Notes under the pieces: model-generated
Seen by the model: the letters and a program-made list of their open reading frames with translations, nothing else
Databases searched by the model: none
Told to the model about the DNA's origin: nothing
Translations under genes and position numbers: made by a program
IMG/VR virus record: IMGVR_UViG_2695420643_000008
Coordinates: 1-5,987 of that record
Length of the DNA stretch: 5,987 bases
DNA from: a virus
Lineage: Duplodnaviria; Heunggongvirae; Uroviricota; Caudoviricetes
Reading direction: 5' to 3' (one strand)
Shown here: in pieces, positions 3,055 to 3,541 of the stretch
Layout: each line of letters begins with the position of its first letter
Numbering within the stretch: the first letter of the stretch is position 1

Positions 3055-3279
3055 GTGAAAAAACTGATGGTGACGATTGGTCCGTTCGAAACAGAAGTTA
3101 GTTTTCGTGTTGTTCAGGGGGAGAGTGTACTTGTTGAAGATGTATTTCATGGAAAATCAACAGGTCCTTATGTAAAAGAATATCTTATCGACGCCACGGA
3201 TGAAAATATTGAGGTGGTGTACGATTCCGTCAATCACCCTGATTTGATCATTAAGGCAAAATTGAAGCCACTTTATTGA
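3055..3279 (+). CDS. Hypothetical small acidic protein (74 aa)
   Basis: ORF track entry. GTG start preceded by AGGAGG (3045-3050) with a 4-nt spacer. No competing minus-strand ORF of 61 aa or more. Translation MKKLMVTIGPFETEVSFRVVQGESVLVEDVFHGK... has no family I recognise. Confidence 0.55.
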   Translation: MKKLMVTIGPFETEVSFRVVQGESVLVEDVFHGKSTGPYVKEYLIDATDENIEVVYDSVNHPDLIIKAKLKPLY

Positions 3280-3331
3280 TCTGACCGGGAGCAATCATAA
3301 AATATCTCTGGGTACCCACAAGGAGATAAAT

Positions 3332-3541
3332 ATGTTTGTTTCTGAAGTGTTAATGGAAGATAAGGACAACAAAGGATGGGTTAAAGGTTGGGCTGTGGTA
3401 AGAAGCTCGCCCTGGCATCTTGTTGGGGTTTTTGCGACAGAGGAAGACGCAGAAACGGAAGCAAGAAAGATGGGAGATAAGTACGAGGTTCACTATGGCT
3501 CGCATCGAACAGGAAGTGATGATTTTGTCTGGGGGGAGTAA
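3332..3541 (+). CDS. Hypothetical small acidic protein (69 aa), possibly DUF2188-like
   Basis: ATG preceded by AAGGAGA (about 8-nt spacer). The GWAVV...FATEEDAETEARKMG...YEVHYGSHRTGSDD pattern resembles the GWAV...EA..A...HG.DG signature I recall for DUF2188 small phage/bacterial proteins (low certainty). All three Arg codons are rare (AGA, AGA, CGA). Confidence 0.6.
   Translation: MFVSEVLMEDKDNKGWVKGWAVVRSSPWHLVGVFATEEDAETEARKMGDKYEVHYGSHRTGSDDFVWGE

Follow-up and report, generated by a model that had tools for sequence, protein, structure and literature searches.

A moron-type two-gene cassette at the Shiga toxin position of a lambdoid prophage

We analyzed a 5,987-nucleotide (nt) stretch of viral DNA (hereafter the window; positions 1 to 5,987 of IMG/VR record IMGVR_UViG_2695420643_000008, Caudoviricetes), which corresponds to the late regulatory region of a lambdoid prophage. 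Its genes are arranged as follows: those for a DUF968 protein and the antiterminator Q, an open reading frame (ORF) of 214 amino acids (aa), three tRNA genes, two small genes that we call A and B, and genes for TerB and a DUF3927 protein. Genes A and B make up a mobile, delimited, low-GC two-gene cargo with its own predicted terminator, and this cassette occupies the slot that holds stx2A and stx2B in the phages that carry Shiga toxin 2 (Stx2), beginning at the same base as the toxin cargo. As a kind, A-B is a moron-type cargo cassette, and we regard the anatomy of cassette and moron as very probably correct. Our preferred explanation, toward which we lean on balance, goes one step further, in that the second gene of this accessory cassette of lambdoid prophages, B, would be transcribed from a promoter of its own and have its ribosome-binding site masked.

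Nowhere are these prophages induced more strongly than in the slot behind Q and the tRNAs, which is also where Shiga toxin is carried, and knowing what other cargo sits there shows what selection favors at this position. The cassette is common in O26 and O145 pathogenic Escherichia coli, and the unit is conserved from E. coli to Xenorhabdus and Yersinia. What is new here is the exact equivalence of the cassette and stx junctions, the behavior of A-B as a unit across two sites, two unannotated protein families, one of them without a detectable fold relative, and a compact B leader with a palindromic loop.

Boundaries and position of the A-B cassette

The original prediction, made from the nucleotide sequence alone, described two ORFs on the same strand, each with a Shine-Dalgarno (SD) site, separated by 52 nt and free of competing reverse-strand ORFs of 61 aa or more. 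This description stands in full. Gene A (3055-3279, plus strand; 74 aa; WP_000735807.1) starts with a GTG four nt downstream of its SD sequence AGGAGG (3045-3050, plus strand), and this start position is fixed because the homologues all begin with MKKL. Gene B (3332-3541, plus strand; 69 aa; WP_000498121.1) starts with an ATG, follows A after a gap of 52 nt (3280-3331) and is preceded by the SD sequence GGAGA (3322-3326, plus strand). The longest reverse-strand ORFs across the region encode 35, 45 and 51 aa. Both frames are under purifying selection, with a median ratio of nonsynonymous to synonymous substitution rates (dN/dS) among homologues of 0.21 for A and 0.09 for B, and the exact A protein and the exact B protein are each encoded on at least 1000 public contigs. 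A and B are real genes.

Upstream of the pair, the three tRNA genes (Met-CAT, Arg-TCG and Arg-TCT; 2715-2964, plus strand; identified by ARAGORN and Rfam) form a conserved module 5' of the cargo slot; the Met-CAT tRNA carries the label tRNA-Ile/ileZ in related records. The module ends with a terminator-like hairpin, GGCTCGCTTTTGCGGGCC, followed by a T tract and GTATCTGCG (2978-3011, plus strand, with the hairpin at 2978-2995). Position 3011 is also the left boundary of the slot: neither Stx2 phages nor the empty site are homologous beyond it. The cassette itself spans 596 base pairs (bp; 3012-3607, plus strand) and consists of a leader, gene A, the B leader, gene B and a second terminator-like hairpin, GAGGTCGCTATTGGCGGCCTT, with a T tract and GTATCCGCG (3574-3607, plus strand, with the hairpin at 3574-3594), which forms the right boundary. 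The bracketing by terminators that had been proposed for the pair is thus found as hairpins with T tracts on both sides, and at each end of the cassette the terminator stem is followed by a TTTTTTGTATCYGCG repeat.

These boundaries are defined by a comparison with an empty site. In an otherwise matching prophage of E. coli UTAK-6 the cassette is absent, and the tRNA-Arg terminator joins the TerB leader directly. Alignment of both junctions to this site places them at 3011/3012 and 3607/3608, hence the 596-bp insert. The G+C content is 39% in gene A and 46% in gene B, against 52-54% in the flanks.

The comparison with Stx2 phages gives the same left boundary. Window positions 2286-3011 share 92% identity with the ileZ-argN-argO segment of Stx2a phage WGPS8, and the homology stops exactly at 3011. 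In WGPS8 the stx2A leader comes next, and stx2A starts 92 nt past argO; in the window, gene A starts 91 nt past the third tRNA, the equivalent of argO. Like A-B, stx2A-stx2B is a two-gene cargo on one strand. Both cargoes start directly after ...TTTTTT(G/A)TATCTGCG, and both lie 3' of Q/PR' and 5' of the esterase and lysis genes (PMC8065619). This position, 3' of Q and of ileZ/argN/argO-type tRNAs and at the starting base of stx2A/B, agrees with the expression hotspot at which the pair had been thought to lie. In their products the two cargoes differ. A and B have no sequence or fold similarity to Stx subunits and no signal peptides. An AB5 (Stx-like) toxin cargo, which would comprise a secreted A subunit of N-glycosidase fold and an OB-fold B subunit that forms pentamers, both with signal peptides, was rejected. 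At 74 and 69 aa they are also far smaller than StxA, and stx2B encodes about 89 aa.

Among 5426 complete E. coli genomes, 93 contain an identical copy of the 681 bp around A-B, mainly those of O26:H11 and O145:H28, and in these genomes the pair is followed by TerB, DUF3927, a SASA-family esterase, holin and lysozyme. Lambdoid morons, which include lambda bor and lom and HK97 gp15, are units of 'more DNA' with their own promoter and terminator. Like them, A-B lies in the late region, is present or absent between homologous genomes with sharp junctions and lower G+C, and has a predicted 3' intrinsic terminator and a candidate sigma-70 -10 element. Unlike them, it contains two genes, with the putative promoter and terminator signature on the second gene only, and its products are soluble, unlike those morons that encode envelope proteins. 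PMC8065619 is the source both for what defines a moron and for the location of stx behind Q.

Linkage of A and B across two late-operon sites

To describe the neighborhood of B, we used one genome per species together with viral contigs, in which 118 loci have a B match (individual loci are given below by L numbers). An A-family ORF on the same strand ends 42-78 nt 5' of B in 94 of the 98 informative enterobacterial or viral loci. The paired loci span E. coli, Salmonella-type and Citrobacter-type phages, mEp237, Xenorhabdus, Yersinia, Scandinavium and Pseudocitrobacter. The enteric exceptions are L014, where an unrelated 76-aa ORF replaces A, L028 and L029, which are two divergent copies from Citrobacter braakii, and L100, which has no gene 5' of B on that strand. 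B occurs without A at 4 enterobacterial loci and at 20 non-enterobacterial loci; A is lacking beside the B homologues of Pseudomonas, Azotobacter, Stutzerimonas, Ralstonia, Bordetella and alphaproteobacteria. An ORF found 5' of B in a Pseudomonas phage was considered as an A homologue and rejected as not homologous. On the other side of B, a convergent ORF of about 90 aa is present in a Pseudomonas phage (L004, 4188-4454, minus strand) and in Azotobacter (L021, 4201-4479, minus strand); the two resemble each other and may represent a different partner of B outside Enterobacterales.

Relatives of A were recovered in numbers that depended on the search: a word-index search with the single sequence returned near-identical proteins only, an exhaustive search of representatives returned 11, and a profile search returned 107 clusters, which are confined to Enterobacterales as far as the organism names given by the sources show. 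At 35 of 78 sampled A loci, A is found without B. In Stx phages the start of A overlaps the stop codon of Rz (ATGA) and no terminator lies behind A, and an ATGA-coupled A after Rz is also found in other lambdoid phages.

Within the late operon the pair is found in two settings, and its orientation is always that of the late genes. One is the order Q-tRNAs-A-B-TerB, as in the window, and the other is holin-lysozyme-Rz-A-B-terminase; the majority of A-B pairs lie directly 3' of Rz. The possession of this second site sets A-B apart from stx2AB. Lambda bor is an established example of a moron located after Rz. The site after Rz is a moron site in general (PMC8065619). Thus, in the neighborhood survey that had been recommended for the pair, A and B keep together from genome to genome and at two different phage positions. 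Pairwise identities of A and of B across loci are correlated (Pearson r = 0.68), which fits co-inheritance with some shuffling. The pair is linked in Enterobacterales, and each gene can exist alone.

The sequence just upstream of gene A bears on where the window cassette came from. The 25 nt 5' of gene A (3030-3057) are similar to the sequence with which Rz ends in Stx phages (L002, 3985-4004), and for this reason we suggest that the cassette may have come from an Rz-proximal site. The start of gene A in the window is now GTG, with ATG-TGA ahead of it.

The leader and predicted terminator of gene B

The region between A and B is conserved better than gene A itself. From 5' to 3', the B leader consists of a TAnnnT hexamer, the SD complement YCTCY, the palindrome GGGTACCC, a short A-rich spacer and AAGGAGA. 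In the window, the hexamer forms the -10 (3298-3303) of a candidate sigma-70 promoter for B (3276-3303, plus strand; TTGATC, 16 nt, TAAAAT). It is followed by a candidate hairpin that would mask the ribosome-binding site (3303-3328, plus strand), in which TATCTCT (3303-3309) pairs with GGAGATA (3322-3328) across a 12-nt loop (3310-3321) that opens with the self-complementary GGGTACCC (3310-3317). All 49 distinct leaders, whatever their loop, share the T, the A and the last T of this hexamer, which lies 27-29 nt from the B ATG in most of them and up to 31 nt in the remainder. The motif GGGTACCCA(0-6)AAGGAGA has at least 119 instances in the viral collection. Among the instances listed, 81 of 119 stand directly 5' of a B gene; in four more, the leader is complete and the B gene behind it is truncated or disrupted, and the remaining ones are without the other elements of the leader. 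These counts mark the motif as specific to B. Behind the gene, a terminator-like hairpin with a T tract lies no more than 120 nt 3' of B in 54 of 58 distinct A-B loci, and these terminators have at least six unrelated stem sequences.

We suggest that these signals divide the cassette into an ordinary late gene, A, and a moron proper, B, which would have a conserved -10 ahead of it and an intrinsic terminator directly behind. Where a late operon has a conserved terminator in its interior, a transcription start nearby in the repressed prophage is the most sensible arrangement under moron logic, because the transcript would otherwise enter the lysis or packaging genes. Apart from the -10 in the gap that separates A from B, no promoter-like element is conserved, and it is therefore B that would be the moron gene and A the late gene. 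Its own promoter and terminator would let a repressed prophage make B without reading into the genes for lysis and packaging.

The placement of the hairpin suggests how the two kinds of transcript might differ. The anti-SD arm would fill the 6-8 nt from the -10 to a G-rich predicted start point and, lying between the two, would be present only in read-through late transcripts. Such a transcript would carry the arm and mask the ribosome-binding site of B, and a promoter-proximal transcript would lack the arm and leave B translatable. The B leader would in this way pack a -10, an anti-SD arm and a palindromic loop into 30 nt, and it could have opposite effects on the translation of a single gene in two transcripts that overlap. 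We know of no moron for which an anti-SD arm between the -10 and the predicted start has been described. For this combination of promoter and masking we put the chances at about even.

Several features of the leaders are consistent with masking. An anti-SD stem of 5-10 contiguous pairs is found in most lineages with the GGGTACCC loop, and its arms differ among them: TATCTCT/GGAGATA in the window, TTATCTCC/GGAGATAA in mEp237, GTATGCCTCT/GGAGGCATAT in L098, TCTATCTCT/GGAGATAGA in L100 and ATCTATTTTC/GGAAATAGAT in Xenorhabdus. Compensatory extensions of the stem are lineage-specific and sometimes reach the AUG. The mean pairing probability of the SD is 0.84 in the leaders, compared with 0.61 in shuffled upstream sequence; 22 of the 49 leaders lie above 95% of their own shuffles in this respect, and a contiguous stem of at least 6 bp is formed by 41% of leaders and by 14% of shuffles. 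A 5' arm that complements the SD over 5-10 bp is a property shared with translational operators and RNA thermometers. Unlike known hairpins that mask ribosome-binding sites, the B hairpin holds a conserved 8-nt palindrome in its loop, has no Rfam match and would be bypassed by a start point inside the hairpin. The Rfam scan found no family within the cassette, the B leader included.

Other observations weigh against this explanation of the leader. The -35 element is weak (3-4 of 6 matches) and shows no enrichment over control offsets, and a promoter scan of the whole window yields no more sites than do shuffles. RNAalifold returns no consensus structure for the 49 leaders, and in the pair count one control, slid by +3, nearly equals the proposed structure in covariation score. 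The 3' arm is constrained in any case, because it is the SD itself, and SD occlusion in that register is not in excess among the GGTTAACC-type leaders (Yersinia/Scandinavium). The GGGTACCC palindrome, finally, has no explanation within the proposed scheme. Covariation support for an RBS-masking leader is moderate only, and support for the anti-SD hairpin as a whole is likewise moderate, not decisive.

The palindrome is nearly invariant. Yersinia-type leaders carry a different palindrome, GGTTAACC, and the leader of Xenorhabdus beddingii carries the G-U-compatible GAGTATTC in place of GGGTACCC. Candidate roles for the element are an operator, an RNA dimerization site or a protein recognition loop.

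We considered whether A and B might instead be plain late genes, transcribed only from PR' after induction, with a leader that acts as a translational operator, in the form of a binding site or a hairpin, and sets how much B is translated relative to A. The weak -35 and the non-significant promoter statistics fit such an arrangement, the hairpin and its loop are the most conserved part of the leader, and the orientation of the cassette is always that of the late operon. This alternative, however, leaves unaccounted both the invariant T, A and T at a fixed distance from the ATG in 49 leaders and the intrinsic terminator behind B in the middle of a late operon at 54 of the 58 loci. It is the strongest of the alternatives that we weighed, and we give it roughly one chance in four.

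Predicted products and possible functions

Both proteins belong to PHROG families: A falls in phrog_2571 (E 1.9e-26, profile positions 100-171 of 291) and B in phrog_4280 (E 6.1e-41, profile positions 1-69 of 71). The two families are annotated 'unknown function', so that membership gives A and B no mechanism. Neither protein has a significant match in Pfam, NCBIfam or PADLOC, and family-profile searches of PDB sequences with A and B gave nothing under E 0.8. The source records name them 'hypothetical' or 'uncharacterized', except that a single cluster member bears the automatically assigned UniRef name 'Putative oxidoreductase', and literature searches by accession, locus tag or PHROG number returned nothing on either. 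The DUF2188-like motif that had been suggested for the 69-aa protein was not recovered, and we rejected membership: Pfam scans of B and 12 relatives gave zero matches to PF09954, even at E<=10. We also rejected membership of B in DUF7336 (PF24024), to which residues 30-53 give the only match, at 17.1 bits (E 0.005) and below the gathering cut-off of 25 bits; 4 of 13 members give such a match. No homology to ordinary structural or housekeeping proteins was found for A or B.

Confident AlphaFold2 models show A as a six-stranded, all-beta protein forming a small beta-sandwich and B as a beta-beta-alpha-beta fold. Neither matches any family of solved structures: the B fold has no detectable relative among them in a structural search, and the A fold matches XepA no better than it matches dozens of unrelated sandwiches. 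From sequence and models, no signal peptide or membrane segment is present in A or B. Within the B family, the motifs SPWHL and YGSHRxGSDDF are strongly conserved, and the invariant aromatic and basic residues (W, W, H, Y, H/Y and R) stand in an otherwise acidic protein. The characterization of both proteins as rich in aspartate and glutamate (D+E) is right about the sign of the charge and overstates its size: A has 16% D+E, a net charge of -4 and an isoelectric point (pI) of 4.97, and B has 20% D+E, a net charge of -6 and a pI of 4.90. A and B are thus small, soluble and mildly acidic proteins without a catalytic or nucleic-acid-binding signature.

Function is the weakest step of our explanation. 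Because the products are soluble and small, lack catalytic motifs and are encoded at accessory sites, we suggest a binding role in conflict, in which A and B would bind other proteins or small ligands in contests between phage and host or between phages (exclusion or counter-defence). That they act by binding partners in this way, and are not structural, lysis or toxin components, is what we consider most likely, with a conflict-type function as such falling somewhat short of an even chance. If A and B do act in exclusion or counter-defence they represent a new family; otherwise the cassette is a well-delimited ordinary moron.

A narrower proposal is that A, B or both inhibit a host defence by binding or sequestering a signal, which would make the slot a counter-defence hotspot. 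Like Ocr/ArdA, Acb2, Tad1, Tad2 and Acr proteins, A and B are small, lack enzymatic domains and are encoded in an accessory region, here a variable slot. Genes of the Acb2/Tad1-hairpin family are neighbors of A-B in two related phages, lying 1-3 kb away in a Xenorhabdus prophage (L005, 7891-8133) and in a contig of the Logan assembly (L006, 6385-6678); the latter also has a SIR2_2 gene between Q and TerB (489-2459). The invariant aromatic and basic residues of B provide a further lead, since ligand sponges likewise keep such residues within an acidic protein. Against this, A and B match no known defence or anti-defence family, and more broadly we found none of the likeness to anti-defence, DNA-mimic, toxin or antitoxin families that the original prediction had raised as a speculation. 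Unlike the known small anti-defence proteins, they are also encoded in a late operon, with A coupled to Rz, which is late against defences that act at entry; the B signals, a -10 and a terminator of its own, fit prophage expression better and would be unusual for an early-acting gene. DNA mimicry of the Ocr/ArdA type, considered as an anti-restriction mechanism, was rejected: at pI ~4.9-5.0 and 16-20% D+E, with net charges of -4 and -6, the proteins lack the extreme acidity of DNA mimics, and their compact predicted folds are of the wrong kind and have no structural match. We therefore consider an anti-defence pair unlikely.

The promoter and masking scheme that we favor for B can be extended to a state-dependent pair, a possibility that we regard as improbable and offer as speculation. 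In such a pair the lysogen would make B from a promoter that has the anti-SD arm as its discriminator, which would leave the ribosome-binding site of B free on this transcript, and Q-dependent read-through on induction would make A while masking B. B would then be a prophage-expressed exclusion or host-modulating factor of new fold, A might be its late partner or antidote, and phages that carry only A, next to Rz, might escape lysogens that bear B. If this were true, A-B would be a new conflict module sharing the Shiga toxin slot and would represent a new way of inverting expression between lysogeny and lytic growth.

The frequent association with Rz raises the question of whether A, and perhaps B, modulates the holin-endolysin-spanin pathway. 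The ATGA overlap of A with the Rz stop codon in many Stx and lambdoid phages, and the fact that most pairs abut Rz, can be read in this way. The window and the 93 E. coli genomes, however, place the pair 3.4 kb 5' of holin, beyond TerB, DUF3927 and the esterase, and a role in lysis is not what the lack of signal peptides and membrane segments would lead one to expect. The post-Rz site, moreover, receives morons generally (PMC8065619), and the resemblance of A to XepA is equaled by that to the unrelated sandwiches. A lysis accessory function thus seems to us quite improbable.

A toxin-antitoxin or toxin-immunity pair, as the original prediction had also entertained, would fit two small neighboring genes that are read in one direction and mostly found together in Enterobacterales, but it is very improbable, given that A lacks B at nearly half of the sampled A loci and B lacks A in Pseudomonas, Azotobacter, Ralstonia, alphaproteobacteria and a few enterics, that no toxin, antitoxin or DNA-binding domain was found in either protein, that both are acidic, and that the genes are separated by 42-78 nt with a regulatory element of their own and do not overlap; an obligate type II pair was rejected on the occurrence of each gene alone and the lack of recognizable domains.

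The remaining features of the window lie on either side of the cassette. The DUF968 protein is encoded at 114-1109 and Q at 1112-1498 (PF06530). Between Q and the tRNAs, the 214-aa ORF (1547-2191, plus strand) has a G+C content of 39.7%, belongs to phrog_8498 and gives a weak match to the WYL domain. Elsewhere the same spot holds two reverse-strand ORFs (O145 RM12761) or a SIR2 protein (L006), and apparently this is another variable position for cargo. Complete E. coli genomes have at most 85% of the window in any single place. The part containing Q and the WYL-like ORF and the part containing the tRNAs, A-B and TerB are found in differing combinations among these genomes, and the region is therefore mosaic.

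On the 3' side, TerB (3731-4162, plus strand) is assigned 143 aa from an ATG at 3731; its longest ORF begins with a GTG at 3659 (3659-4162, 167 aa), and RefSeq records and the PHROG profile favor the ATG. The DUF3927 gene follows at 4159-4326. Just 3' of it, positions 4334-4503 (plus strand) match the Rfam small RNA family STnc100 (102 bits, E 3e-22), accompanied by a terminator-like site at 4528-4546, and pieces of this match (4360-4390 and 4435-4466) are also found 3' of stx2B in Stx2a phage WGPS8.

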